Counted from the stretch's first letter, positions 4,939 through 24,000 are shown. The stretch: 24,000 nucleotides of DNA from Candidatus Electrothrix communis (GCA_030644725.1 CP130629.1:651572-675571), one strand, 5' to 3'. Translations and numbers: made by a program. Notes: generated by a model from the sequence alone, not told the origin.

Positions 4939-4974
4939 AACTGGTACTCTCTCCAGGTATGAAGGTAACCAGCA

Positions 4975-5028
4975 ACAAAAAAGCCCCTCCCGATTGCACG
5001 GGAGGGGCTTTTCTATTCAGTTGCTTCT
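4975..5028. repeat. Copy 1 of a ~54-bp duplicated terminator-containing repeat (hairpin 4983-5008)
   Basis: The sequence acaaaaaaGCCCCTCCCGattgcaCGGGAGGGGCttttctattcagttgcttct has a 10-bp GC stem flanked by an A-run and a T-run. It is therefore a bidirectional intrinsic terminator lying downstream of the 5143-5901 gene. It is near-identical to 6147-6203, including 15 nt beyond the hairpin. Confidence 0.8.
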
Positions 5029-5142: not shown

Positions 5143-5901
5143 TTACTTCCCATGTACTTGTCTGGCGTAATCAGTAAAGTCTACGGGTACGTTGGGATTT
5201 GCCTTGCTATACCCCTTGCCCCGAATATCGTCTCTTGCGGTTATGTTTCTCACAAAATTACCCGAGCTGTCATGCACCGCAATAACGCTTTTGAAATCAG
5301 AGTTAGCGATACCCTCATGCGTATTCAACGACATAACCAAGGTGGCTTTTTGGATAGTCGCAGAGGCGGGAATGCCGCTCAGGTCGGCATTAAAATTGGC
5401 AGACCCCCGTGTTTTTTTAATCAGCATCGAACTTGATCGTGAACTGGTAAATGTGCCTTCGCTGTGCTCAACGACAAGCTGTGCTGAATCAAACCAAATT
5501 CCGCAACTGTCGCAGGCCATGACGGTCTGGGAAAAAACCAGGCTGAATTTACCCGTGCCTGCAGCAGCCATGTCCAGAGTTTCTTGGGGTGCATCGGATG
5601 TGACTGCTGCAACAGCCGTGTCCTCTACTTCTTCGGGCACCTCGGATGTGGTTGCCGCAACAATCGAGTCCAGAGCTTCTTTAAGCTCCCCGGATGTGGT
5701 TGCATGGGCGGGAAGGGAGCCAAGCTCCATAATCGGCGTCGTCCATTTTTCAGGCAGCATGCTGCATCCGGCCAGAGCGGCACTTCCAATGGCAAGTTTT
5801 TGTATTACCGTTCTTCTGCTTATATTCCGCTCTTGGTCAACGGATTGCAGGCATCGGGTGGTTTCATTATTGATAGAGGATTTCGTTTCGTTAATGGGCA
5901 T
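5143..5901 (-). CDS. Hypothetical Tat-signal lipoprotein, possibly with a DNRLRE-like C-terminal domain
   Basis: The 252-aa ORF has a twin-arginine motif followed by a lipobox (NISRRTVIQKLAIGSAALAGCS). An acidic A/T/S-rich linker has three short internal repeats (ATTSGE / ATTSEV / AVTSDA). The C-terminal block SANFNADLSGIPASATIQKATLVMSL resembles the FDLS-x-IP-x-A-x-I-x-x-A-x-L motif of DNRLRE-type domains. A longer antisense ORF (5192-5980) is less coherent. Confidence 0.55.
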   Translation of the reverse strand: MPINETKSSINNETTRCLQSVDQERNISRRTVIQKLAIGSAALAGCSMLPEKWTTPIMELGSLPAHATTSGELKEALDSIVAATTSEVPEEVEDTAVAAVTSDAPQETLDMAAAGTGKFSLVFSQTVMACDSCGIWFDSAQLVVEHSEGTFTSSRSSSMLIKKTRGSANFNADLSGIPASATIQKATLVMSLNTHEGIANSDFKSVIAVHDSSGNFVRNITARDDIRGKGYSKANPNVPVDFTDYARQVHGK

Positions 5902-6146
5902 CGTTAATCTCTTTATTATTTCTGTTGTTCAATGGGAGAATAAATTTTCACTAAAATATATATGTCCTCTATTCAAGTGAGATAATTCACCCCGATATTT
6001 TTGAAGTTATTGATGTTCCTCGTACAGGCATGGTAGCTCTCGAATAAAAGCCATTACAACACAATACCACATACATCGTGGTACTACAACCTTACTCTTG
6101 TCAGCGAGCCGCTCGCTCGCAGTTAAAAACGGCAAATTCTAACAGG

Positions 6147-6203
6147 CACAAAAAAAAAGCCCCTCCCGATTGCTCGGGAGGGGCTTTTTATTCAGTTGCT
6201 TCT
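6147..6203. repeat. Copy 2 of the duplicated terminator repeat (hairpin 6159-6184); functional rho-independent terminator of the PFOR gene
   Basis: The sequence is cacaaaaaaaaaGCCCCTCCCGattgctCGGGAGGGGCtttttattcagttgcttct. On the minus strand the stem is followed by a T9 run, 60 nt after the PFOR stop codon. A second 9-bp hairpin (ATAGCCTGT/ACAGGCTAT, 6204-6229) sits between it and the stop. Confidence 0.8.
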
Positions 6204-6243: not shown

Positions 6244-9886
<3,643 letters not shown>

Positions 9887-12090: not shown

Positions 12091-12702
12091 TTATCTGTCC
12101 GCCGAATTTTTCTTCTTATTTTTTTTGTTTGATTGGAACCAGGCAAGGATGCCAGCCAGTCCGATAATACAGCCAACCCCGCCAAGAATATCCCGAGGGC
12201 TGATCTTTTTTTCGCGTCCTTCTGTGAGATGCTGTTTTATGGGGACCAACTCTCTCTGCAACTCTTGCTGTACGATTTTGCGTATCGCCTCTATATCGAG
12301 GCCTTCTGCCGTTGGTCGGTCTTTTTGAAGAGCCGACGACGGGGCATTGTCCGGCGAGAGGTACTCGTCTGCTGTCAGAAGCCATTCTCCACGATGACCA
12401 TCCCCGGAATCCACTGAAATCAACAGGCTCAGCTTTTGTTGAACTGCCTGTTGAGGAGGGGTGAATTGGAACTTGCCTTCTTCATCTGTTTGTGTTGTCA
12501 GCAGGGAAGTCCGGGTTTCGCTGTCTTGAACATGAACCGGTACGTTTTTTGCTTTACGCCCTCCGCTAAAAAAAGCCTCTCCGTAAATATACTGGTCACC
12601 TGCCCATGAAAAAACATTCATTTTATGGGCTTGAGCAGGCAGTGCGAAGAACGTAAACAAGACGGCAAAGAAGAGAGTTGCCAGGATACGAGAACGGTTC
12701 AT
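12091..12702 (-). CDS. Bitopic metal-transport accessory protein (NikL/NikN-like) with a carboxypeptidase-regulatory-like beta domain
   Basis: The ATG at 12702 overlaps the cbiM stop (ATGA), indicating translational coupling. The sequence is MNRSRILATLFFAVLFTFFALPAQA|HKMNVFSWAGDQYIYGEAFFSGGRKAKNVPVHVQD...TDEEGKFQF, with a C-terminal TM helper segment (ILGGVGCIIGLAGILAWF) and a lysine-rich tail. Confidence 0.6.
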   Translation of the reverse strand: MNRSRILATLFFAVLFTFFALPAQAHKMNVFSWAGDQYIYGEAFFSGGRKAKNVPVHVQDSETRTSLLTTQTDEEGKFQFTPPQQAVQQKLSLLISVDSGDGHRGEWLLTADEYLSPDNAPSSALQKDRPTAEGLDIEAIRKIVQQELQRELVPIKQHLTEGREKKISPRDILGGVGCIIGLAGILAWFQSNKKNKKKNSADR

Positions 12703-13301
12703 ACGTATTCCAGGTGTAAAATTTCCGGTTGGACCTTGGCCAGAAAACCGACAGTGAACATGGTGATACATCCTTCAATAATCATGACCGGCACATTTGC
12801 TGCGATAATGAGTTGTGCAGCAGCGGTGAAGCCAGTATCGGTAAGGGCAAGGGCGCAGGCGGTCAGCAGTGAGGCCAGGAGAATTGCCACAAATCCTGCA
12901 ATAAAAGCGGCAGCAGGGCGTGTTTTGGGATTATCCATCCAAGGGCGGGTCAGGTAATAGCAACAGAGAGCTGGAACAGACATTGTGAGCGTATTCACCC
13001 CGAGGACGGCAAAACCGCCAAATTGAAAAAACAGCGCCTGAAGAAAGAGAGCGATAAGAATCGCCGGGAAAGCAGCCCAGCCCAGCATGACTCCGAGAAG
13101 TCCGATTAACATCAGATGTACGGATCCCGGCCCGAGAGGAACATGAACGAGTCCTGCAACAAAAAATGCGGAAGAAAACAGAGCAACGGGCATAATCTGT
13201 TCAAGATCAATCTTTTTCAATCCGATAAAGGTGCCGATGGCAGTAAAAGCACCGCCGCTTATCAAAACCGGTGCCGAAAGAATCCCTTCTGAAATATGCA
13301 T
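12699..13301 (-). CDS. cbiM: ECF transporter substrate-capture (S) component, CbiM/NikM family (Ni or Co)
   Basis: I set the start at the ATG at 13301, giving MHISEGILSAPVLISGGAF. The Met-His N-terminus is the conserved metal-ligating end of CbiM/NikM. The track ORF starts further upstream at a TTG. The protein is 200 aa and polytopic. Confidence 0.85.
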   Translation of the reverse strand: MHISEGILSAPVLISGGAFTAIGTFIGLKKIDLEQIMPVALFSSAFFVAGLVHVPLGPGSVHLMLIGLLGVMLGWAAFPAILIALFLQALFFQFGGFAVLGVNTLTMSVPALCCYYLTRPWMDNPKTRPAAAFIAGFVAILLASLLTACALALTDTGFTAAAQLIIAANVPVMIIEGCITMFTVGFLAKVQPEILHLEYV

Positions 13302-13626
13302 AATGTACGAGAGTAATATTTTTTTATTTTTTGTAACACTGAGAGCCTGTTTACTATAAAACTGAGGTTTTGTCAAGCTGTAGGTGGAATTTGTAGATGA
13401 TGAGCCGTTTTTATCGTGAAGTTGAGGAAGGAGAAGTTTATCAACTTGAATTGAAAATAATGCCTGGGTGAGTGGAGTTTGTGGAGAGGGGTGAAAGGAG
13501 TTGCAACCGAGGGAAAAGGATTTGTTTTCTTCTGTATTATTTGAAGAATATTTTTTCGTTTTCCTGTCAAGGAGTGTAGGTTCAGCCTAAGGGAATAGCT
13601 GACAAAGCTGGTCATGTAAAAAAAAT

Positions 13627-13654
13627 ATTGACAGCAAAAATATTAAGGGTATCT
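13627..13654 (+). promoter_or_regulatory. Putative sigma70 promoter of the ferredoxin gene
   Basis: TTGACA (13627-13632), a 16-nt spacer, then TATCTT (13649-13654), about 95 nt upstream of the ATG. Confidence 0.4.
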
Positions 13655-13750
13655 TTGCCCAAGTCAGTACATGTTGTTTGTACATAAATAATCGTGAGGT
13701 TACTTTTATAAAAAGGGCTCGTTAGAGGGCCGCTACTAAGGAGAAAGACA

Positions 13751-13936
13751 ATGTTTGAAGTCGTTGTAGACAAAGAAAAATGTACAGGTTGTGAAGAGTG
13801 TGTCGGTTCTTGCCCCGCCGGAGTATTCGAGTTCAATGATGGGAAATCAGAGCCGGTAAACGAAGACGAATGTCTGGGTTGTGAGACCTGTGTGGAAGTT
13901 TGCGAGTCAGACGCCATCACTGTTACTGAGTCCTAA
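13751..13936 (+). CDS. fdx: 2x[4Fe-4S] ferredoxin (61 aa)
   Basis: The sequence is MFEVVVDKEKCTGCEECVGSCPAGVFEF...DECLGCETCVEVCESDAITV, containing two CxxCxxCxxxC motifs. An AAGGAGAAA SD lies 5 nt upstream. Confidence 0.9.
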   Translation: MFEVVVDKEKCTGCEECVGSCPAGVFEFNDGKSEPVNEDECLGCETCVEVCESDAITVTES

Positions 13937-14106
13937 GGGGCGCAGTTGATGATGAGGCAACGGTGTTGCTGCAGCATAGCCGTTGCCCACTATTAACCGA
14001 GGCGTTCGCTTATCGGTTTTCCTTCTCTCTGTTCCATTTTCATAATTTTCTCTTTCCCGCCACCCTTATTTCGCCCCCTTCTTCTCTTTCGGTAACAGGC
14101 AGCAAT

Positions 14107-14140
14107 AAAAAAGGGCACAGGGAAAATCCCTGTGCCCTTT
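14107..14140. terminator. Bidirectional intrinsic terminator between the convergent ferredoxin and Cys-repeat genes
   Basis: The sequence aaaaaaGGGCACAGGGaaaatCCCTGTGCCCttt has a 10-bp stem (14113-14122 / 14128-14137), with an A-run on one side and a T-run on the other. Confidence 0.75.
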
Positions 14141-14168
14141 GAGAAGCTTTACTTCAGTGTACGGCTAA

Positions 14169-15287
14169 TTAATGTTGGAAGCGCAGTCCTATACCAAAAC
14201 GTCCATATTGATCCATGTCGCTCAGCTCATCAACAGCATTTCGAGCTTCGAGGAAGACGGAAATGTTAAAGTCATCTCGATGGCCGTAGACTCGTGCTCC
14301 GATATTAGCCAGAATGTCGATGTCTGTGTCTTCGGAATCGAGATCATCATCTCCAGCACTTATCCATGCGCCGAGGCCGAGGCCGATAAAGCCATCAAAG
14401 GCACCAGACCAGTTGTATTGGGCAAAGAGATCAATCAGCAGGGCATCGTCTCCGTCAGAACCATCTAACTTAGGAGCTGCACCGACCATAGCCAAATAAG
14501 ATATATTCTCATAAGAAGTCCCAGCATAAGGGCTGTACTCCACACCTAAGCGAGCAAAGAGAAAGTCCGCCGGATCGGAGAGGCGCAGGTAACCGATGTC
14601 GCCAATAAAACGAAGTGGGCCCATTGATCCGCCGCCGTAACAGCCGAGTTCCTGGCATTCAGCCGGGCAGTCTTCTGCGTCAGGGTTGTCTTCACATTCA
14701 GCTGGGCAGTCATCACAAGTGATCGCAGCAGTTGGTTCGTCAGAGTTATCAGACAGACACTCTTCCGGCACATCCTGGCATTCAGCCGGACAGCTTTCCT
14801 GGTCTTGAGATTCACCTTTGCAGGATGCTGGGCAGTCAGTAGGGTATTTATCGCAAATATTGCAACCCAACTCGTCACACACAGGCGGGCAATCCTGTCC
14901 TTCAGGATTTTCGATACACTCTACAGAACAGTCTTCACAACTGTAACATTTTATGTCGCGGCATATATCTGGACAGCCTTCGGCATAGGGGTTGATTTTA
15001 CATTCGTCCGTACAGTCTTCACAGGATTGGCAAGTGACATCCTTGCAGATATCTGGACAATCCGTACCGTACGGGTTCATTTTGCATTCATCTGAGCAGT
15101 CGTCGCAGGATGCTTGGGATGATTGACATTCTGGATCCTTACAGACGGACGGACATCCTTTACTATAAGGATTTTCCAAACATTCATCGGAGCAGTCGTC
15201 GCAGGTGAAGGCTCTGCCTCCGGCAAAGGCGACACCCGCCGACAGCACGACTAAAACAGCAGCCTGTGCCAACACTTTCAGTTTCAT
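14169..15287 (-). CDS. Secreted acidic cysteine-rich tandem-repeat protein with a beta-rich (possibly outer-membrane barrel) C-terminal domain
   Basis: The ATG at 15287 follows an AAGGAGAG SD; the track start at 15296 is a GTG. The signal peptide is MKLKVLAQAAVLVVLSAGVAFA. About 36 Cys occupy residues 29-216 in 28-aa repeats of the form C[DE]DC[ST]xECxxNP[YE]xxxCPx[IV]Cx[DE]xxCxx: four full copies, two degenerate copies and one further full copy. The last ~155 aa have alternating-hydrophobic beta-strand character and end GIGLRFQH. Confidence 0.7.
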   Translation of the reverse strand: MKLKVLAQAAVLVVLSAGVAFAGGRAFTCDDCSDECLENPYSKGCPSVCKDPECQSSQASCDDCSDECKMNPYGTDCPDICKDVTCQSCEDCTDECKINPYAEGCPDICRDIKCYSCEDCSVECIENPEGQDCPPVCDELGCNICDKYPTDCPASCKGESQDQESCPAECQDVPEECLSDNSDEPTAAITCDDCPAECEDNPDAEDCPAECQELGCYGGGSMGPLRFIGDIGYLRLSDPADFLFARLGVEYSPYAGTSYENISYLAMVGAAPKLDGSDGDDALLIDLFAQYNWSGAFDGFIGLGLGAWISAGDDDLDSEDTDIDILANIGARVYGHRDDFNISVFLEARNAVDELSDMDQYGRFGIGLRFQH

Positions 15288-15390
15288 GGTTCTCACTCTC
15301 CTTGTTCTGTGAAGTTTATCTCATTGCCCGTATTTTCGGACGAACTGTATTCTACCTGGATACAAGTGGTAAAATTTTTTTTACTTTTAA

Positions 15391-15419
15391 TATATATAAA
15401 CTCCTTGGTGATCTGGCAA
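15391..15419 (-). promoter_or_regulatory. Putative sigma70 promoter of the Cys-repeat gene
   Basis: The minus strand reads TTGCCA (15419-15414), a 17-nt spacer, then TATATA (15396-15391), about 100 nt upstream of the ATG. Confidence 0.4.
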
Positions 15420-15606
15420 CATAAAAAAGGCGACGAGTGCCTGTAACATCATTTTTTAGTACAACAGCGTGCCACGTGTAAAGAAAATAAGATTAGCTCT
15501 TGCGTTCCCTTACCAAGAGGCTACATTACAGTTTGAGAGGCTCAGGTTGTCGCCGAGCAGATGGGTAGTGAAATTTCAGCTCTTACATGCAACTTACTTA
15601 AAAAAT

Positions 15607-16224
15607 ATGAATAAAATAAATGTAATGACCGGTCTCGTTTGGGTGTTCCTTCTGCTCGGTTATTGCTTCTTTCCAGAACTGGTTAAACAGGATTCGATTC
15701 AATTTCCCCTGGCCTTGCTTCTGTCTGTTTTTCTGCCGGTAAGTTTTTGGCAGGTTGCAAACCAGGAAAAAAGAAAATACTTCGCTTTGCTCTTTGTCGG
15801 TATATTTATTATTAATATTTCCTTCCTGCTGGTTGTCATTCGGGGTAGCTTTGCTATGCAGCAACAAATCACGAAAGAAGTGAACAGAGGGATACAGCAG
15901 GAGCTGGCAGGATATTTGGTTACCGCAGTCAGTGGTAATAAACGGAGGATCGCAGCTCGACTTATTTACCAGCGGCACGGTGTCGCCCTGCCGTTTAAAA
16001 ATGACTCAGGGTCCTACACTCTATACGTGCCGAGCGAAGCTGATAAGGAAACGTTTCAGAAAAACTTTTTCGCACGCAATGATCTCAAGCTCCAGAATGG
16101 GGGCTTTTCAGCTTCTTTTGCCACTGCGGCCCTATTGCTAATGATCCATGCGGGGCTTTTTATTACGCTGCTGGTCTTTCTGGTCCTTTATGATAAGAAG
16201 GTGATAGTAAGGGGCGAGAGGTAA
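15607..16224 (+). CDS. Hypothetical integral membrane protein
   Basis: The track ORF starts at the GTG at 15469. I prefer the ATG at 15607 (MNKINVMTGLVWVFLLLGYCFF), which is followed by 3-4 TM helices, a soluble ~90-aa loop and a final TM. There is no clear SD and I recognise no family. Confidence 0.45.
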   Translation: MNKINVMTGLVWVFLLLGYCFFPELVKQDSIQFPLALLLSVFLPVSFWQVANQEKRKYFALLFVGIFIINISFLLVVIRGSFAMQQQITKEVNRGIQQELAGYLVTAVSGNKRRIAARLIYQRHGVALPFKNDSGSYTLYVPSEADKETFQKNFFARNDLKLQNGGFSASFATAALLLMIHAGLFITLLVFLVLYDKKVIVRGER

Positions 16225-16793: not shown

Positions 16794-16855
16794 CGTAGGG
16801 GGAACCTATGTGTTCGCCCTTTTATGCCGGGCAGACACACAGGGCTGCCCCTACG
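16794..16855. repeat. Inverted pair of the module-C hairpin repeat (GTAGGG..CTGTGTCTGCCC family), terminator-like after the TM2 gene
   Basis: The sequence is cgtagggggaacctatgtgttcgccc-ttttatgcc-gggcagacacacagggctgcccctacg followed by TTTT. The arms are imperfect reverse complements and are homologous to 18538-18568, 21181-21210, 22889-22920 and 22941-22967. Confidence 0.7.
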
Positions 16856-18405: not shown

Positions 18406-18603
18406 ATGCCCCAACGGGGCTGTATCTAACCAGCCCAGGGTAACACCTTGAGTACACAATCCATCCGGGTTGCTCGGGGTATTACCCCGAGCTTGTTAGA
18501 TATAACCCTTTCAGGGTATTGGTACCCGTTAACCTGCCGTAGGGTGCAGATCCCTGTGTCTGCCCTGAATATAATGATGCCAAGGTCCTTGCCCCAACGG
18601 GAC
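18406..18603 (+). repeat. Composite hairpin-repeat cluster 1 (modules A-B-C-A')
   Basis: A is 18406-18455: atGCCCCaacGGGGCtgtatctaaccagcCCAGGGTaacACCTTGagtac. B is 18471-18520: tgCTCGGGGTattACCCCGAGcttgttagatataACCCTttcAGGGTatt. C is 18538-18568: cgtagggtGCAGATccctgtGTCTGCcctga. A' is a partial copy at 18574-18603. The cluster is homologous, module by module, to clusters 2 and 3. Confidence 0.85.
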
Positions 18604-18763
18604 ACGAATCCGCCATCCTGGGCATCATCGCAACGACCTTGCGGAATCCCGCCCTTTTTTGTACACTCCTGCTGTCCTTTTTCTTTTTCCGTTAACAGAG
18701 ATATTGCGAGGTTGTACGTTTCCCTCAGCCTTCTCTCTTCTTATCCCTTCGAGAAAATCATCT

Positions 18764-19150
18764 ATGAACGCAAAACTTTCATTGCATAACAGCGAGATAT
18801 CGGAAGAAGATATCCAGGATCTGGTCTTATCGCTTACGCAAACTCTGAACCAGGAAACCGATCTGACAGCGCGACTTCCCGAAGAAGTAGGTGGCCCAGG
18901 CAGCAAAGGGGATGCTGTCACCATTGGAGAGATTTTCATTGCCGCCCTGAGTTCCGGCACGGTTGCGGCCCTTTTGCAGGTGCTGAAGTCCTATGTTGAG
19001 CGAAAACCGACTCTGCGCATTGAAGTAGAGACCCTGGACGGCAACAAGGTTAAAATTGAGGCTGAGCATCTCAGTCCGGGGCAGATAGAGCAGACCACCC
19101 GAGCAGTGAAGCAGCTTTGCGGTCAAACCGCTGATGACGGCAATGGCTGA
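18764..19150 (+). CDS. EACC1-like (effector-associated constant component) small protein
   Basis: I place the start at the internal ATG at 18764, giving 128 aa. The pattern is EEDIQDLVLSLTQTLNQETDLTARLPEEVGGPGSKGDAVTIGEIFIAALSSGTVAALLQVLKSYVERKPTLRIEVETLDGNKVKIEAEHLSPGQIEQ. This matches the recalled EACC1 architecture: an acidic N-terminus, G-x-x-G, a hydrophobic A/G/S-rich helix, a basic turn, and then h-x-h-x-h..DG..h.h.A. Its stop overlaps the start of the caspase gene. Confidence 0.65.
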   Translation: MNAKLSLHNSEISEEDIQDLVLSLTQTLNQETDLTARLPEEVGGPGSKGDAVTIGEIFIAALSSGTVAALLQVLKSYVERKPTLRIEVETLDGNKVKIEAEHLSPGQIEQTTRAVKQLCGQTADDGNG

Positions 19151-20912
19151 AAAACGCTACGCAATCCTCATTGCCAGCAGCAGCTACCCGGATGAGCCGG
19201 GGCTGACAGATCTGCGTTGCCCGGCGAATGATGTTGATGCGCTGGATAAGGTGTTGCGTTCGCCTGATTTGGGTGGCTTTACCGAGACCGTTGTTTTTAA
19301 AAACCGGCCCAGCCATGAGGTGTTGGAGCGGATTGAGACCGTGCTGGGGGAGGCGGGCCGGGAAGATCTGGTGCTTATCTATTTTTCCGGGCACGGTAAG
19401 CTGAATCCGGCAGGCCAGCTCTGTCTGGCCACGGCAAACACCAAGTTGCGGGCACTGGGTTCAACCTCCATTCCGGCAGGGTCGATTAAATCCTATTTTG
19501 ATCATTCCGCGAGCAGGAAAAAGATTCTTCTTCTGGACTGCTGCTACAGTGGGGCTGTGGGTAAAGATTTCACCAAGGGCGGAGTGGGTGAGCAATTGCA
19601 GCTCATGTCCCGAGGTCAGGGCACCTTTATCATGACCGCTTCCACCGGGATTGAGGTGGCAGTGGAAAAGGAGGGCGATACGTACGGTCTGTTCACCAAG
19701 CATCTTGTTCAGGGGATTCGGTCTGGCGAGGCGGATAAAGATGAGGACGGTTTCGTGGACATGCAGGAGCTGTATGAGTATGTCCATGAAAAGGTGCGGG
19801 GGGAAGGTGCGCAGCAGCCCATGAAGTGGGATCTTCATGCTAAGGGAAAGCTGGTGATTGCCCGCAGCGGCAAAGCTTCGGGAGGAAAACAGCTGCGAGA
19901 GGCGAAGAGCATATTGTTCAGGCTGGCGGCAGAGGAACGGCTGACAGAGAGCATCGTGTTCGAGGCGGTCAAGCTCCTTACCCTCCCCAAGCAGGAGATG
20001 ACGGCAAAAGATCAAGAATGCAGCCTGCTGGTCCGGCAGCTTGTCGGCACGCAGATCAGCCCACCTGTCTTTATTGAACAATGGGTGAGGGCCTGTATCA
20101 CATACAAGTCTCACAAGTCGACGGAATCGAAAAAGGAACGACTTGGTCCATCGGTTGCATCTCAGCCGAAGGCACCTGTTGTCTCTCCTGGACAAGCCTC
20201 TAGGCCTACGCCGCAGCAGGGCGACACGATACAGGATGAACCCACCGGCATGGAGTTGGTTTATATTCCCAAGGGGTGTTTTCAGATGGGATCAAATGAG
20301 TATGATGGTGAAAAACCGGTGCATGAGGTCTGCGTGGACGGCTTTTGGATGGGGAAATATGAAGTCACCCAAGGGCAATGGAAGAATATAATGGGCGATA
20401 ATCCGGCCAATTTTCAAAAGGGTGATGATTATCCGGTGGAGCAAGTTTCCTGGGAGGATGCGCAGAAGTTCATTACCCAGCTGAAGAAGAGATCCGGGAA
20501 GGAATACCGCCTGCCCACTGAGGCGGAATGGGAATATGCTGCTCGGGCCAAGAGTTCGTACAAATATAGCGGCGGGGACGACTTGAATGCTGTGGCTTGG
20601 TATGACGGCAACAGCGGTGACAGCACGCATCCGGTAGGTCAAAAAAAGGCCAATGCCTTTGGATTGCACGATATGAGCGGCAATGTCTGGGAGTGGTGCG
20701 CGGATTGGTACGGCGAGAAATATTATGCCTCCAGTCCGAAAAATAATCCGACCGGGCCGGATTCCGGTACGTACCGTGTTCTCCGTGGCGGCAGCTATTT
20801 CGATAGCCCGGTGTTCTGCCGCTCTGTCTATCGGGATAGCGGCGGGCCGGGGTACCGTGACCGTTATGTCGGGTTTCGCTTGGTTCTTCCCTTCCAGGCA
20901 GCTGGAAGCTGA
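19143..20912 (+). CDS. Caspase-like peptidase C14 domain fused to a C-terminal FGE-sulfatase (SUMF1/C-type-lectin fold) domain
   Basis: The ATG at 19143 lies within ATGGCTGA, an 8-nt overlap with the upstream stop. The caspase core is KRYAILIASSSYPD...LRCPANDVDAL...LVLIYFSGHGK (His84)...KKILLLDCCYSGA (Cys133/134). The FGE-fold domain, from about residue 375, reads GMELVYIPKGCFQMGS...PVHEVCVDGFWMGKYEVTQGQW...YPVEQVSWEDAQKF...YRLPTEAEWEYAAR...GLHDMSGNVWEWCADWY...VLRGGSY...GFRLVL. Confidence 0.85.
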   Translation: MAEKRYAILIASSSYPDEPGLTDLRCPANDVDALDKVLRSPDLGGFTETVVFKNRPSHEVLERIETVLGEAGREDLVLIYFSGHGKLNPAGQLCLATANTKLRALGSTSIPAGSIKSYFDHSASRKKILLLDCCYSGAVGKDFTKGGVGEQLQLMSRGQGTFIMTASTGIEVAVEKEGDTYGLFTKHLVQGIRSGEADKDEDGFVDMQELYEYVHEKVRGEGAQQPMKWDLHAKGKLVIARSGKASGGKQLREAKSILFRLAAEERLTESIVFEAVKLLTLPKQEMTAKDQECSLLVRQLVGTQISPPVFIEQWVRACITYKSHKSTESKKERLGPSVASQPKAPVVSPGQASRPTPQQGDTIQDEPTGMELVYIPKGCFQMGSNEYDGEKPVHEVCVDGFWMGKYEVTQGQWKNIMGDNPANFQKGDDYPVEQVSWEDAQKFITQLKKRSGKEYRLPTEAEWEYAARAKSSYKYSGGDDLNAVAWYDGNSGDSTHPVGQKKANAFGLHDMSGNVWEWCADWYGEKYYASSPKNNPTGPDSGTYRVLRGGSYFDSPVFCRSVYRDSGGPGYRDRYVGFRLVLPFQAAGS

Positions 20913-21046
20913 TCCTGCTTTTCCCGTGAGCAAAGAAAAATGAGGGAGTGGAACAATGGCGGCAAGGAGCTGAGGGACGAAGCGATTGCAGCTATTGTGC
21001 AGCGAGTGAATATCGGGGATATGGGGCGAAGCCCCGGCGATTTTTT

Positions 21047-21275
21047 TGCCCCAACGGGGCTGTATATAACCAGCTCAAGGTAACACCCTGGGTACGTAGT
21101 GTATCCCGTCCGTTTTCTCGGGGTGTTACCCCGAGCTGATAAATATAACCCTTTCAGGGTATAAGGACCGCAGGCATGTTGTAGGGCGCAGACCCCTGTG
21201 CCTGCCCTGATTTTTACCGCGACATCATGCCCCAACAGGGCAATATCTAACCGGCTCAGGGTAACACCCTGAGTA
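21047..21275 (+). repeat. Composite hairpin-repeat cluster 2 (modules A-B-C-A)
   Basis: A is 21047-21095, B is 21117-21163, C is 21181-21210 and the second A is 21227-21275 (which contains the 8-bp stem CTCAGGGTaacACCCTGAG). The order is the same as in cluster 1, with about 80 percent identity by eye within modules. The cluster ends 10 nt before the ATPase ATG. It is preceded by a small GGGGCgaaGCCCC hairpin and a T7 run (21023-21047). Confidence 0.85.
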
Positions 21276-21285
21276 GAAAAACATC

Positions 21286-22851
21286 ATGCCAAAATACTTC
21301 AACACCACAGGCCCCTGCTTCCCCCGCCTCCATTACATGCTCCCACCCAAGGATCGCTTGGTCGGGGCCAGCCTGGACCGCTATATCCGCGATGAACTCT
21401 ACTGGGTACTGCACGCGCCCCGACAGACCGGCAAGACCACCTTTCTTCAATCCTGGATGCATGAGATCAACGCCGGAACCGAGGCCGTGGCCTGCTATGT
21501 CAGCTTGGAGAATTGCCAGGAGGTGACGGAAACGGAAGAGGCTATGCCGCTGATAGTGGATGCTGTCAGGAAATGGGCCGGAACCTTTAACCTGCCCGTG
21601 CCGGAGTATCCTGAGAAGGTCGCGCCGGGCAGTTCTGTCTCCGCTGTCCTTGAGAGTTGGGCAAAACAGGTTGCTCCCAGGAAACTGGTCGTGCTTTTTG
21701 ATGAGGTGGATGTTGTCGCAGGTCCGGCTCTGGTCAGCTTTCTCCGCCAACTCAGAAGTAGTTTTGCCGGACGCGGCGCAGGTGCATTTCCTGTCTCGGT
21801 GGCACTGGTGGGTATGCGTGATCTGCGGGACTATCTGGTGTCCAGCAAGGATGGCAGGCTCCTCAATCCAGGCAGTCCCTTTAATATCAAGCATGATTCA
21901 GCCACCCTGAGCAATTTCAGTCAGGCCGACATTGCCGACCTGACCTCCCAGCACAGCCAAGCAACCGGGCAGCAGTTCACCCCAAAGGCCCTGGAGCGGA
22001 TCTGGGCCTGTTCTTCCGGCCAGCCTTGGCTGGTCAACGCCTTATGCGAACAGATCGTTTACCGGATCATTCCTGAAGCGCAGACAGCGGTGCAGCCGGA
22101 GCATGTGGATCAGGCACGGGAACGGCTCATAGCCTCACGGGCCACCCATATTGATTCCTTGGGGGAACGCCTCCGGGAGGAGCGGGTGCGCCGGGTGATT
22201 CAGCCGATGATGATCGGGGAAAGTGACCCGAATTTAGGGCGTTCCGACCGCGACGTGGAGTTCTGCCTCGACCTGGGTCTGATCGCCTGGGATGGTTCAC
22301 TGGTGATAGCCAATGCGATTTATCGGGAAGTCATTGCCCGTTCCCTGAGTCAGAATTATCAGGACAATATTCCCGCCCCAGAATTCTCCTGGCAGCGGCC
22401 AGATGGCAGCTTGAACATGGACGCGCTGATGAACGAGTTTCAGAAGTTCTGGGCCTGGAATTCCGAGATATGGGAGGAAAAAGCCGACTATACCGAAGCC
22501 TTTCCTCATTTGCTCCTCATGGCCTTTCTCCAGCGTATTATTAACGGAGGAGGCAGGGTGGATCGGGAATACGCCGCAGGACGGGGACGGATGGATTTAT
22601 TGATCCGCTTTGGCGGTAAGAGTAATTTGGTGGAGATCAAGCTGGTGCATCCAAGGATGGGCCGGGAGGCGACCCGTGACCAGGGTCTGGAACAGGTTGA
22701 GCGTTATGCTGATCAAACCGGTCCTGATACCTGCCATCTGGTCATTTTTGACCGGCGTCTGGATCAGCGCAGTAAATCCTGGGAGGAACGGCTTTCCCGA
22801 GAATTCTGCATAACGTCGTCCGGGCGTTCCGTGGCCGTGATGTGGTGCTGA
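21286..22851 (+). CDS. ORC/Cdc6-like AAA ATPase fused to a C-terminal PD-(D/E)XK nuclease-fold domain
   Basis: The 521-aa ORF has the N-terminus MPKYFNTTGPCFPRLHYMLPPKDR, the FNT-x-GPC..HYML start seen in a widespread ATP-binding protein family. Walker A is HAPRQTGKTT and Walker B is KLVVLFDEVD. The C-terminus reads GRGRMDLLIRFGGKSNLVEIKLV, consistent with the D...E-x-K nuclease motif. Confidence 0.75.
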   Translation: MPKYFNTTGPCFPRLHYMLPPKDRLVGASLDRYIRDELYWVLHAPRQTGKTTFLQSWMHEINAGTEAVACYVSLENCQEVTETEEAMPLIVDAVRKWAGTFNLPVPEYPEKVAPGSSVSAVLESWAKQVAPRKLVVLFDEVDVVAGPALVSFLRQLRSSFAGRGAGAFPVSVALVGMRDLRDYLVSSKDGRLLNPGSPFNIKHDSATLSNFSQADIADLTSQHSQATGQQFTPKALERIWACSSGQPWLVNALCEQIVYRIIPEAQTAVQPEHVDQARERLIASRATHIDSLGERLREERVRRVIQPMMIGESDPNLGRSDRDVEFCLDLGLIAWDGSLVIANAIYREVIARSLSQNYQDNIPAPEFSWQRPDGSLNMDALMNEFQKFWAWNSEIWEEKADYTEAFPHLLLMAFLQRIINGGGRVDREYAAGRGRMDLLIRFGGKSNLVEIKLVHPRMGREATRDQGLEQVERYADQTGPDTCHLVIFDRRLDQRSKSWEERLSREFCITSSGRSVAVMWC

Positions 22852-22856
22852 ATCGG

Positions 22857-23033
22857 TTGCTCGGGCTGTTTTACCCCGAGCTGATAAACGTAGGGACGCA
22901 GATCCCTGTGTCTGCCCTGAATATCCGGGCACACTAAACCGGGTAGGCACAGGGACCTACCCCTACGATAATGATGCCGAGGCCCATGCCCCAACAGGGC
23001 TGCATATAACCAGCTCAACGTAACACCCTGTGT
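22857..23033 (+). repeat. Composite hairpin-repeat cluster 3 (modules B-C-C(inverted)-A)
   Basis: B is 22857-22888, C is 22889-22920 and an inverted C copy is 22941-22967 (gggtaggcacagggacctacccctacg). A is 22986-23033. The cluster fills the whole 186-bp gap between the ATPase stop and the convergent AIM24 stop. Confidence 0.85.
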
Positions 23034-23037
23034 CACC

Positions 23038-24000
23038 CTACTTCTCAAAGAGCGTAGAGATATTCCCGAGCACAGACCCCTCACCAACGCTCTCTCCGCC
23101 AGCTTTGGGCGCAGCAGCCCAGATTCGTCCGGCCAGCCGGGAAAAGGGCAGAGATTGCAGCCAGACATGGCCCGGCCCGCGCAGACTGGCAAAGAAAAAG
23201 CCCTCGCCACCAAACACAGCTGATTTCACATTGCCCACATACTCAATATCATAATTCACAGTCTGGGTCAGGGCGACTAGGCAGCCGGTGTCTACCCGCA
23301 GGGTTTCTCCGGCCTTGAGCTCCCGTTCAACGATGGTGCCGCCTGCGTGGACAAAGCAGAGGCCGTCGCCGTCCAGCTGCTGCATGATGAATCCTTCCCC
23401 CCCAAACAAGGCCGTACCGAGTCTTTTCTGAAAGGCGATTCCGATGGCAACCCCCTTGGCTGCACAGAGAAAGGCGTCCTTCTGGCAGATGATCCTGTTG
23501 CCGTACTGACTCAGATCCAGAGGGATAATCTTGCCCGGATACGGGGAGGCAAAGGCGACCTTGCCCTTGCCCTGACCCTCAAAGGTGAACATGGTGACGA
23601 ACAGCCCTTCGCCGGTGATCAGTCGTTTACCCGCCCCAAGCATTTTATCAAAAAAACCGCCTTGCTGGGAGGAGGCAGAGCCGTCACCAAAGATGGTGTC
23701 CATCTTGATAAAATCGCTCATGTACATCATGCTGCCCGCCTCGGCTACTACGCTTTCCTGCGGATCGAGTTCAATCTCGACAAACTGCATTTCGTGACCG
23801 AAAATCTCGTAATCAATCTCGTGGGCCTGCCGTCCGCTCATGGAAGGAGGCATGCGGCCTGCCGCCGTATCGGGAGCAGTCAGTTCTTTGACCTGTTCCA
23901 CTGGCAACCAATCGTTAAATCCTTCCCGCCAGACCATGGTGGCCAGGTTATACTGGCCGGATCGTACCCCGGCGATCATCTGTTCAGGGGAAAAAGGACC
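23038..24000 (-). CDS. GYF_2 domain - AIM24/TIGR00266-family fusion protein (5' end beyond the window)
   Basis: The frame stays open to the window edge: ...[40 protein letters not shown] is a GYF_2-type motif. The AIM24 core follows: [34 protein letters not shown]...[31 protein letters not shown]...[44 protein letters not shown]...[23 protein letters not shown]. Confidence 0.8.

Follow-up and report, generated by a model that had tools for sequence, protein, structure and literature searches.

Hairpin repeat clusters in a gene island of Candidatus Electrothrix communis as probable mosaics of two REP families, one of them linked to a Y1 transposase gene

A 24,000-nucleotide stretch of the genome of the cable bacterium Candidatus Electrothrix communis (GCA_030644725.1 CP130629.1:651572-675571; hereafter the window, numbered from its first letter) contains three intergenic clusters of hairpin repeats, at 18406-18603, 21047-21275 and 22857-23033. 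The clusters are probably mosaics of two families of repetitive extragenic palindromes (REPs), in which the units of the first family (A/B) resemble REP doublets forming hairpins (REPINs), the cognate enzyme of that family is a Y1 transposase of subclass 1.2, and the copies may recombine gene cassettes. The identity of the elements as REP-type repeats linked to a Y1 gene is probable. A role of the clusters as recombination joints is put forward tentatively.

Repeat units were located by reading of the sequence, with a repeat finder, with nhmmer profiles and with a covariance model (CM) of the A unit. A preliminary description of the window had reported the three clusters as sets of hairpin modules named A, B and C, and both the sequence and the CM place them at the same positions, with all of the mini-hairpins named there present. 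The six full A-type copies give 57-71 bits (E 1e-13 to 1e-17), and the CM finds no further matches in the 24 kb besides the clusters. All copies in the window are intergenic. An isolated inverted pair had also been reported; it is present at 16795-16854 but is built of module C alone, in both orientations. The units are as follows.

18407-18454, + strand: A unit of cluster 1 (CM 70.3 bits, E 3.5e-17)
18473-18519, - strand: B of cluster 1, an inverted A-type unit of the B subtype (CM 65.2 bits)
18539-18569, + strand: C of cluster 1, a GTAG-foot REP with the stem GCAGA/TCTGC (nhmmer E 3e-8; GTAG-hairpin scan)
18590-18603, + strand: truncated A of cluster 1, the first hairpin alone, TGCCCCAACGGGAC (14-nt stump identified by sequence)
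21047-21094, + strand: first A unit of cluster 2 (CM 68.9 bits)
21117-21162, - strand: B of cluster 2, an inverted A-type unit (CM 67.7 bits)
21181-21211, + strand: C of cluster 2, a GTAG-foot REP (nhmmer E 2e-7; GTAG-hairpin scan)
21228-21275, + strand: second A unit of cluster 2, 10 nt 5' of the ATPase start codon (CM 70.7 bits)
22860-22889, - strand: truncated B of cluster 3, CTCGGGCTGTTTTACCCCGAG and the start of the spacer (nhmmer B-model positions 3-32; weak CM match)
22890-22920 and 22941-22966: C and inverted C' of cluster 3, a GTAG REP doublet (nhmmer; GTAG-hairpin scan)
22987-23033, + strand: A unit of cluster 3, abutting the AIM24 stop codon (CM 57.5 bits)
16795-16854: isolated C/C' inverted doublet with GTAG feet, GTAGGGGGAACCTATGTGTTCGCCC at 16795-16819 and its inverted partner at 16829-16854

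The three modules had been regarded as separate elements and reduce here to two families. The repeat finder gives ~77% complementarity between B and A, and reversed B aligns along the whole of A; module B is an inverted, diverged module A, and A-B is therefore a convergent, REPIN-like doublet of one two-hairpin unit. The clusters are mosaic arrays of two REP families, in the manner of bacterial interspersed mosaic elements (BIMEs). The unit of family 1 (A/B) is ~48 nt long and consists of a first hairpin GCCCC-AAC-GGGGC, a 13-nt spacer TATNTAACCAGC and a second hairpin YCAGGGT-AAC-ACCCTGR. These units begin with (A)TGCCCC or ATACCCC and do not have the canonical GT[AG]G foot, which is present in module C. 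Family 2 (module C) carries the GTAG tetranucleotide at the foot of a ~7-8-bp stem, and a GTAG-foot hairpin is the canonical form of a REP (PMC6006769, PMC3733652). Variants of the module C stem keep their pairing (GCAGAC/GTCTGC, GCGAAC/GTTCGC, GCGCAC/GTGCGC, GCGGAC/GTCCGC and others), and the module is frequently found in C/C' inverted doublets.

The A unit at 18407 contains GCCCC-aac-GGGGC as hairpin 1 and CAGGGT-aac-ACCTTG, with one mismatch, as hairpin 2. Together with B of cluster 1, which has a two-hairpin fold (z = -6.8), it makes a convergent doublet with a gap of ~15-18 nt, and the doublet folds. The overall count is 19 convergent inverted doublets (gaps of 15-34 nt), 16 singlets and no tandem direct pairs. 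Conservation of the hairpins was evaluated with 44 distinct copies, in which 94.9% of the cells are in standard pairs and 7 of the 13 pairs have changes on both sides. The covariation score was reached by none of 500 shuffles, and the slid-partner controls collapse. The differences between A and B compensate inside each mini-hairpin (GC/AU at columns 7:19, AU/GC at columns 36:48) and, by inspection of the alignment, would mismatch the long A-B hairpin drawn by RNAfold. From this pattern of compensation and mismatch we infer that selection would act on the small hairpins rather than on the long A-B hairpin.

The order A-B, usually followed by C at a fixed distance, is found at L003, L007, L008, L011, L015 and L016 and twice in the window, and the B-C spacer CCCGTTGAYCTGCC is conserved across these A-B-C loci. 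A conserved A-B-C order had been ascribed to all three clusters; it is seen in clusters 1 and 2, but cluster 3 is made of truncated B, C, C' and A. This order had further been judged more elaborate than that of classical REPs, a view that was abandoned because inverted doublets (REPINs) and mosaic clusters (the BIMEs of E. coli) are already established. L003 has an A/B hybrid without the inner hairpins, which corresponds to a deletion between the ATATAAC repeats of both arms. A further two-hairpin motif, TTGTCCC-GGA-GGGACA...GCCCAGTGATTTATCGCTGGG, appears in the mosaics of L003 (3760-3818) and L013 (1300-1346, - strand) and is possibly another module type.

Two Y1_Tnp proteins were identified among the 117 open reading frames (ORFs) of the repeat-selected loci. 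The gene of L005 (1896-2348) is preceded by B and A and followed by a 47/47-identical A, and the gene of L006 (3499-3951) has a doublet on either side. A homologue search added the closed genome of E. laxa (L022), with two tandem Y1 genes that are 95% identical and each bracketed by doublets, and these doublets can be aligned from end to end with the A-B doublets of the window. Upstream of the Y1 gene of Electronema (L023) lies a 144-nt x 3.3 tandem array of diverged doublets, the stems of which are compensated (GCCCC-GAA-GGGGC and CCCAAGGC-AAC-GCCTTGGG). The Y1 gene with its bracketing doublets is a REPtron-like arrangement, the kind by which REP-associated transposases are defined. The preliminary description had taken the modules for structured elements of the type of REPs or miniature inverted-repeat transposable elements (MITEs) and had considered a transposase of the IS200 type or of the REP-associated tyrosine transposase (RAYT) type elsewhere in the genome. 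The core of that proposal is borne out by the dispersed hairpin family and by its linkage to a Y1 HUH gene, bracketed by A-type units in L005, L006 and E. laxa. A neighbourhood of a Roc-COR GTPase gene, the Y1 gene and a short FGE-sulfatase gene is common to Electrothrix and Electronema, and E. laxa carries the Y1-FGE pair as a tandem duplication. The positions of this neighbourhood are as follows.

L022, 7730-13241
L023, 4626-8795
L006, 2611-6124

The Y1 protein has 151 amino acids (aa) and matches Pfam Y1_Tnp (5.6e-22) and NCBIfam transpos_IS200. Its nearest solved relatives in a profile search of the PDB are the TnpA proteins of IS608 and ISDra2 (~1e-8); Sulfolobus TnpA was also found, and E. 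coli TnpA-REP (4ER8) was not matched by the family profile at E <= 10. The invariant residues are D55-H-V-H58, W96-Q97 and Y116-I-x-x-Q120-x-x-H123-H124, and the motif YIxxQxxHH differs from the Y---NP of class 2 TnpA-REP. TnpAY1 subclass 1.2 has been described by DH[IV]H, WQ, Y---Q--HH, ~148 aa, a conserved C-terminal tail and low copy number (Quentin et al. 2018, PMC6006769). The proteins found here resemble it in DH[IV]H, WQ, Y---Q--HH, a length of ~150 aa, a conserved C-terminal tail and, as partly shown, low copy number, and differ from the listed members in their hosts, Desulfobulbaceae and a Planctomycetes metagenome-assembled genome (MAG), and in their clear flanking and dispersed two-hairpin repeats. 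Group 3 of the RAYT-like IS200 proteins has abundant flanking 16-mers and no duplicates (Bertels et al. 2017, PMC5581495); as a guess, Group 3 could be equivalent to subclass 1.2. No later paper tying subclass 1.2 to repeats was found in the literature.

Homologues of subclass 1.2 from outside the cable bacteria were examined at three loci. L025, from a 4.5-Mb genome, has 54-nt inverted arms that are 94% complementary on both sides of the subclass-1.2 gene. L026, from the Planctomycetes MAG, has at least 8 units distributed over both sides of the gene, and in L027 (GCA_037024415.1) several units flank it. The units of these loci consist of a 5-bp first hairpin with a GAA/AAC loop, a ~13-nt spacer and a second hairpin, and hairpin 1 covaries. 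The outer stem of hairpin 2, CCCAGGGT...ACCCTGGG, is common to the cable bacteria, L026 and L027, and is CGGGGGT...ACCCCCG in L025. The cable-bacterial CM detects the units of all three loci with E values of 1e-9 to 1e-5. Since the units flank the gene in each of them, the pairing of subclass 1.2 with a two-hairpin unit is not peculiar to Electrothrix.

The distribution of the family was determined with sequence patterns, profiles and the CM. The window itself is 99.5-100% identical to a contig of the MAG GCA_026123015.1. A strict 25-nt A pattern matched nine stretches among 185,579 species representatives (one genome each), eight of them from Candidatus Electrothrix or Desulfobulbaceae and one from a MAG labelled 'bacterium'; a slightly looser pattern matched 11 metagenome contigs. 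The nhmmer profiles and the CM give 63 A-type units in 150 kb of non-redundant cable-bacterial loci, with at least 12 unrelated loci represented. The contexts of the units include the rnf operon, xseA, uvrD/NACHT, lpxK, DUF1499 and a locus with clustered regularly interspaced short palindromic repeats (CRISPR) and a reverse transcriptase (RT). These contexts are unrelated to one another, and the family is therefore not a local duplication; confinement to a few loci, the outcome that would have pointed to one, is not what was found, as the modules lie at many unrelated loci in several genomes. A scan of the viral collection with hairpin 1 and the spacer gave no matches, and a scan with hairpin 2 gave 18 mostly interrelated IMG/VR contigs with a variant unit. 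These contigs (L029-L046, uncultivated virus genomes mostly from metagenome 3300045988) are 18-148 kb long, most of them 50-148 kb, and their second hairpin is identical. In several, two direct variant units ~2.7 kb apart flank a segment; in L030, the one contig examined, the segment contains a ketoacyl-synthase gene, an acyl carrier protein gene and an ORF. No Y1 gene was found within the fetched flanks of the variant units in the IMG/VR contigs.

The genes between the clusters are accessory conflict-type genes, identified with Pfam and arranged as two cassettes.

18764-20912, + strand: cassette 1, with EACC1 at 18764-19150 and a caspase + FGE-sulfatase protein at 19134-20912
21286-22851, + strand: cassette 2, an AAA-type ATPase with a C-terminal PD-(D/E)XK domain

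The island has fixed flanks, a 187-aa gene and AIM24, between which three genomes differ in content. In the orders listed below, lower-case letters denote partial units.

Window: A B C a' / EACC1, caspase-FGE / A B C A / ATPase / b C C' A
L011: ORF380 / C C' a' / ORF256, 45%-identical caspase-FGE / A B C C' a''
Electrothrix GW3-4: ORF371 / solitary B-type unit / four ORFs including caspase-FGE, HRDC, RT, two further ORFs / solitary A

The preliminary description had raised structural variation at the cluster boundaries and a role of the clusters as recombination joints, and the comparison of strains supports both, as related genomes differ exactly at the clusters. The homology between the genomes breaks off within modules or at their edges, at window positions 18521, 21045, 21241, 21282, 22985 and 23008. 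The ATPase cassette lies between direct B-C repeats (21117-21211 and 22860-22920); the syntenic islands of L011 and GW3-4 lack this cassette. Loss of the ATPase by recombination between the B-C repeats would leave C followed directly by C', the arrangement found in L011. An 81% homologue of the ATPase adjoins a different caspase gene in L013, where homology starts at window position 21282, just past the second A of cluster 2. L003 is a mosaic that matches L011 (90%) to the left of C and the window (81%) to the right of C; the homology of the window with L003 and L011 starts ~20 nt left of C in cluster 1. An A unit next to the AIM24 stop codon is present in the window, in L011 (3' half only) and in GW3-4, and is absent in AX5, YB6 and Electronema V4, which represent the empty site. 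In AX5 the empty site reads TAG|GTTTTTTTGGGGGG, and GW3-4 has ~75 nt, including one A unit, before GTTTTTTTTTTGGGGGGGGG; the two species are ~12% diverged. These strain data support mobility of the units and show a concentration of structural change at them.

A mechanism is proposed on the model of IS608 TnpA and E. coli TnpA-REP. A dimer of Y1 would recognise the small hairpins where the DNA is single-stranded, as at replication forks, and would cut and rejoin the DNA there, so that copies of the unit are seeded in intergenic DNA. The dispersed, near-identical units could then be sites of homologous or illegitimate recombination, and recombination at the units would lead to gain, loss and exchange of accessory cassettes between fixed flanks. 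The cassettes exchanged here would be EACC1 with the caspase-FGE gene, a target of a diversity-generating retroelement (DGR), and the AAA/PD-(D/E)XK ATPase. The catalysis by Y1, its choice of target, the route by which the units spread and any RNA-level or regulatory effect on the neighbouring genes are presumed rather than observed. A stronger version, which we consider unlikely, makes the subclass-1.2 Y1 protein a second RAYT-like lineage with a bipartite two-hairpin substrate that excises and re-inserts whole cassettes as single-stranded circles. Direct A copies do bound the cassettes on one strand (A...EACC1-caspase-FGE...A...ATPase...A), and in L005 an identical direct A pair bounds the Y1 gene itself. 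If true, single-strand cassette excision would be an HUH-based analogue of integron cassette exchange that serves DGR-diversified conflict systems.

Several points weigh against the assignment of the clusters to REP families with a cognate Y1 enzyme. The Y1 protein would bind and cut the mini-hairpins by analogy with its relatives. It matches TnpAY1 subclass 1.2 by motif signature and length rather than by hidden Markov models or a tree, and that subclass is listed as 'REP: no' and is mostly cyanobacterial or from Bacteroidetes (PMC6006769). No Y1 or RAYT gene was found for module C in this analysis. The strict A pattern gives at most 4 matches per genome, and the family may thus be low-copy compared with classical REPs. 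The loci were chosen by the repeat or by the Y1 gene, which biases the counts and associations. Some copies of A have clearly been spread by segmental duplication and not by transposition, because FGE-sulfatase paralogues share their 3' ends. Lastly, the modules occupy much of the intergenic DNA, and breakpoints in modules are therefore inseparable from breakpoints in intergenic DNA.

The main alternative, which we regard as distinctly unlikely, takes the A units for the left-end and right-end hairpins that belong to an active insertion sequence (IS) of the IS200/IS605 type and to its gene-less derivatives, similar to palindrome-associated transposable elements (PATEs) or MITEs, with no domesticated RAYT/REPIN partnership. 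The likeness of the protein to IS608 and ISDra2 TnpA and its match to transpos_IS200 would agree with this, as would the L005 gene, which lies between its identical direct A copies as if between left-end and right-end (LE/RE) hairpins on one strand, at a locus that differs from the Y1 locus of Electrothrix and Electronema. An active element is nevertheless difficult to reconcile with the distribution of the gene. The homologue clusters map to 1-3 contigs each, the sole duplicates seen are the tandem pair of the closed E. laxa genome, and the Roc-COR/Y1/FGE-sulfatase neighbourhood is kept across two genera. No tnpB was found next to any Y1 copy examined, and the motif is Y---Q--HH instead of the Y[IV]ENQ of true IS200 (subclass 1.1). 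The units, moreover, far outnumber the genes and occur as inverted doublets of fixed spacing.

A reading that is quite improbable as a replacement for the REP/Y1 assignment is that the clusters are chiefly RNA-level elements of the neighbouring operons (stabilisers of the 3' untranslated region, terminators or insulators), to which the link with Y1 is incidental. Covariation accompanies the conservation of the hairpins, the clusters follow ORFs and their folds are stable (z = -3.9 to -4.7); classical REPs, too, stabilise upstream mRNA. Rfam, however, gives no matches at the gathering score and chance-level hits alone at E <= 5. The orientation of the units relative to the flanking genes is mixed, being opposite to transcription at the rnf locus (L007) and at L020, which speaks somewhat against a strand-specific role in RNA. 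Cluster 2 lies past a separate terminator-like hairpin with a T-run, and the two-hairpin unit brackets Y1 genes in the Planctomycetes MAG and two further genomes. The RNA-element and REP/Y1 readings are not mutually exclusive.

It is highly improbable that the clusters result from local or segmental duplication of the caspase/FGE-sulfatase (DGR target) genes with their 3' flank, with no mobile family involved. FGE-sulfatase genes are present in 7 of the 20 repeat-selected loci, and their paralogues share the last ~45 codons, which include the variable region, ~135 nt downstream and a terminator-like hairpin, with A next in several. The units nevertheless occur at loci without FGE or caspase genes (rnf, xseA, uvrD/NACHT, CRISPR-RT, DUF1499 and lpxK), the AIM24 stop codon provides a filled and an empty site, and in other genomes the unit lies beside Y1 without any FGE gene. 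A reading of the doublets as integron-like attC sites separating gene cassettes is effectively refuted and was rejected: although the doublets are ~113-nt imperfect palindromes between co-oriented accessory cassettes, and ATCTAAC/GTTAGAT of cluster 1 fits RYYYAAC/GTTRRRY by chance, the window encodes no tyrosine recombinase or integrase, cluster 2 and the B-type consensus (GATAAAT) lack the core-site match, units lie inside housekeeping operons, and the associated enzyme is an HUH/Y1 protein.

The REP/Y1 assignment places the cable-bacterial elements beside several known systems. REPIN/RAYT systems have been described in Pseudomonas fluorescens and, with TnpA-REP, in E. coli (Bertels & Rainey 2011, PMC3116915). 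The cable-bacterial elements resemble these in their short intergenic hairpin repeats with a predominance of inverted doublets at fixed spacing, in a low-copy HUH/Y1 gene bracketed by its own repeats, and in the joint divergence of repeat and gene between Electrothrix and Electronema. They differ in that the A/B unit comprises two hairpins and lacks the GTAG foot, that the enzyme carries the IS200-like Y---Q--HH and not the Y---NP of class 2, that it does not match 4ER8 at E <= 10, and that copy number looks modest. Work on REPIN/RAYT systems was reportedly also carried out by Nunvar in 2010. As in the BIMEs of E. coli, which are bound by IHF, gyrase and Pol I, several REP types are clustered in alternating orientation with conserved linkers; the sequences are unrelated, and the mixture here is of two distinct REP families, of which one lacks GTAG. 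IS608 and ISDra2 of the IS200/IS605 family provide the closest solved enzymes and have small subterminal hairpins that are read on single-stranded DNA, as the cable-bacterial units may be by analogy, but the cable bacteria have no tnpB, no scattered identical gene copies, and mostly inverted doublets in place of a left and a right end. The BOX elements of Streptococcus pneumoniae (boxA-boxB-boxC) are likewise modular A-B-C intergenic repeats with predicted stable folds, but their sequences and lineage are unrelated, and the cable-bacterial modules reduce to two REP families; we know of no transposase for BOX. The likeness to integron attC sites lies in the imperfect palindromes at cassette boundaries, and the differences are the absence of an integrase from the window, the absence of conserved R/L boxes and the occupation of housekeeping loci.

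REPs, REPINs, BIMEs and RAYTs are already known. The two-hairpin unit, its link to a Y1 subclass that was reported as repeat-less, the recurrence of this pairing in the Planctomycetes MAG and two other non-cable genomes, and the cable-bacterial repeat family itself appear to be undescribed, and nothing on REPs, transposase-linked repeats or DGRs was found in the literature on cable bacteria. The REP/RAYT partnership is a standard example of a domesticated transposase, and its characterisation is, to our knowledge, almost confined to Proteobacteria, where the repeats have a GTAG foot and the enzymes are of class 2. An enzyme much closer to the biochemically tractable IS608 TnpA, tied to a distinct two-hairpin repeat, would extend this picture and supply a defined substrate for biochemistry. 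In cable bacteria the repeat family also delimits a variable island of caspase/DGR conflict genes and is useful for assembly, strain typing and the study of genome plasticity in this uncultured multicellular lineage. Should the elements prove to be passive repeats and nothing more, the finding is that of an ordinary new REP family.

The surroundings of the individual units were also compared. The clusters had been thought to fill nearly all of the intergenic space, which applies to cluster 3 (174/186 nt, 94%) but not to cluster 1 (197/428 nt, 46%) or cluster 2 (229/373 nt, 61%). The A stump at 18590-18603 is followed by the conserved leader of the EACC1 operon; stump and leader are kept in L011, and L015 holds a similar truncated A. 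A terminator scan identified a hairpin with a T-run at 21022-21046, directly 5' of the first A of cluster 2, and a 'hairpin-TTTTT-A' junction as at 21046 recurs in L003, L011 and L015. B of cluster 2 is 88% identical to the solitary B-type unit in the syntenic island of GW3-4. The 9-mer catcATGCC, said to be shared by module A and the ATPase start, is real (21221-21229 and 21281-21289), but its link to the start codon did not hold, and it is treated as chance because the 81%-identical ATPase homologue in L013 starts with attATGCC. The C/C' doublet of cluster 3 folds as a long hairpin (z = -3.4), and its arrangement is also found in L011. The isolated C/C' doublet lies 41 nt downstream of the TM2 gene and folds as a single long hairpin (z = -3.9). 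In Electrothrix AX5 a doublet 86% identical to this pair adjoins a 129-aa ORF, a possible TM2 homologue. The sequence CCCTAC (GTAGGG on the other strand) follows the A unit on the AIM24 side in the window (23034-23041) and in L011 (2532-2537); in both it overlaps the AIM24 stop codon, so that a GTAG tag adjoins hairpin 2 of A.

The last ~45 codons of the caspase/FGE gene look like the variable region of a DGR: in this segment (about 20774-20890) the paralogues differ solely at positions 1-2 of scattered codons. The 3' flank common to the FGE paralogues (20913-21046) contains TTCCAG-GCAG-CTGGAA and a GGGGC-GAA-GCCCC hairpin with a T-run. The window contains neither a template repeat nor an RT. 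Electrothrix GW3-4 (L047, CP147990.1) has a complete DGR in its syntenic island at 12376-15726, composed of a caspase-FGE target, an HRDC accessory gene, an RVT_1 RT and a template repeat, with the following parts.

12376-12483: template repeat
14057-14188: variable region

In the ungapped core of GW3-4 the mismatches between template and variable region are at template adenines; in the full alignment, which has a 24-nt gap, 8 of the 23 substitutions are at template adenines. The DGR is a separate system that shares the island, and no evidence was found for hairpin modules taking part in it. In L001, a near-identical MAG contig (JAGIXJ010000025.1), 242 bp of the window (20793-21034) are missing, comprising the variable region and 3' flank between CGGC repeats, and this difference ends 12 nt before cluster 2. 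L001 also has 32 clustered substitutions relative to the window in the caspase domain (19397-19770). Repeat-mediated exchange was considered for the 242-bp gap and rejected, an artefact of assembly or population in hypervariable DNA being more likely; the differences of L001 suggest strain mixing or assembly collapse at such DNA.

The caspase of L005 (103-1728) is ~75% identical to that of the window (19134-20912) and is fused to Lcl_C/DUF1566 instead of FGE-sulfatase, and L013 (1574-2950) has a caspase-Lcl_C architecture with a far more distant caspase domain. These differences are domain swapping within a conflict-system family.

At L010 an RT ORF without its N-terminal part (5689-6191) starts beside an A/C/C'/A cluster, and a periodic repeat array at 7336-7977 translates to recurring LEHLPYEEGIKT / WNTYPMKRVLR. 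The array is most likely a CRISPR with an associated RT that the repeats have disrupted. This RT was considered as a DGR RT and rejected, since it adjoins the CRISPR-like array and no match to a variable region was found.

Three further observations were made in the window. A pyruvate:ferredoxin oxidoreductase is split between 9302-9817 and 6244-9489 (- strand), with POR_N 1-111 and 112-231 on overlapping ORFs, by a frameshift that reflects either a pseudogene or a sequencing error. A 375-aa ORF without a Pfam match at 14169-15296 (- strand) has internal cysteine-rich repeats, and the direct-repeat families D2 and D4 lie at 14655-15205. Two copies of a 40-nt palindromic, terminator-like sequence, AAAAAGCCCCTCCCGATTGCNCGGGAGGGGCTTTT, at 4973-5012 and 6149-6188, are 95% identical and bracket an unannotated gene at 5143-5901.

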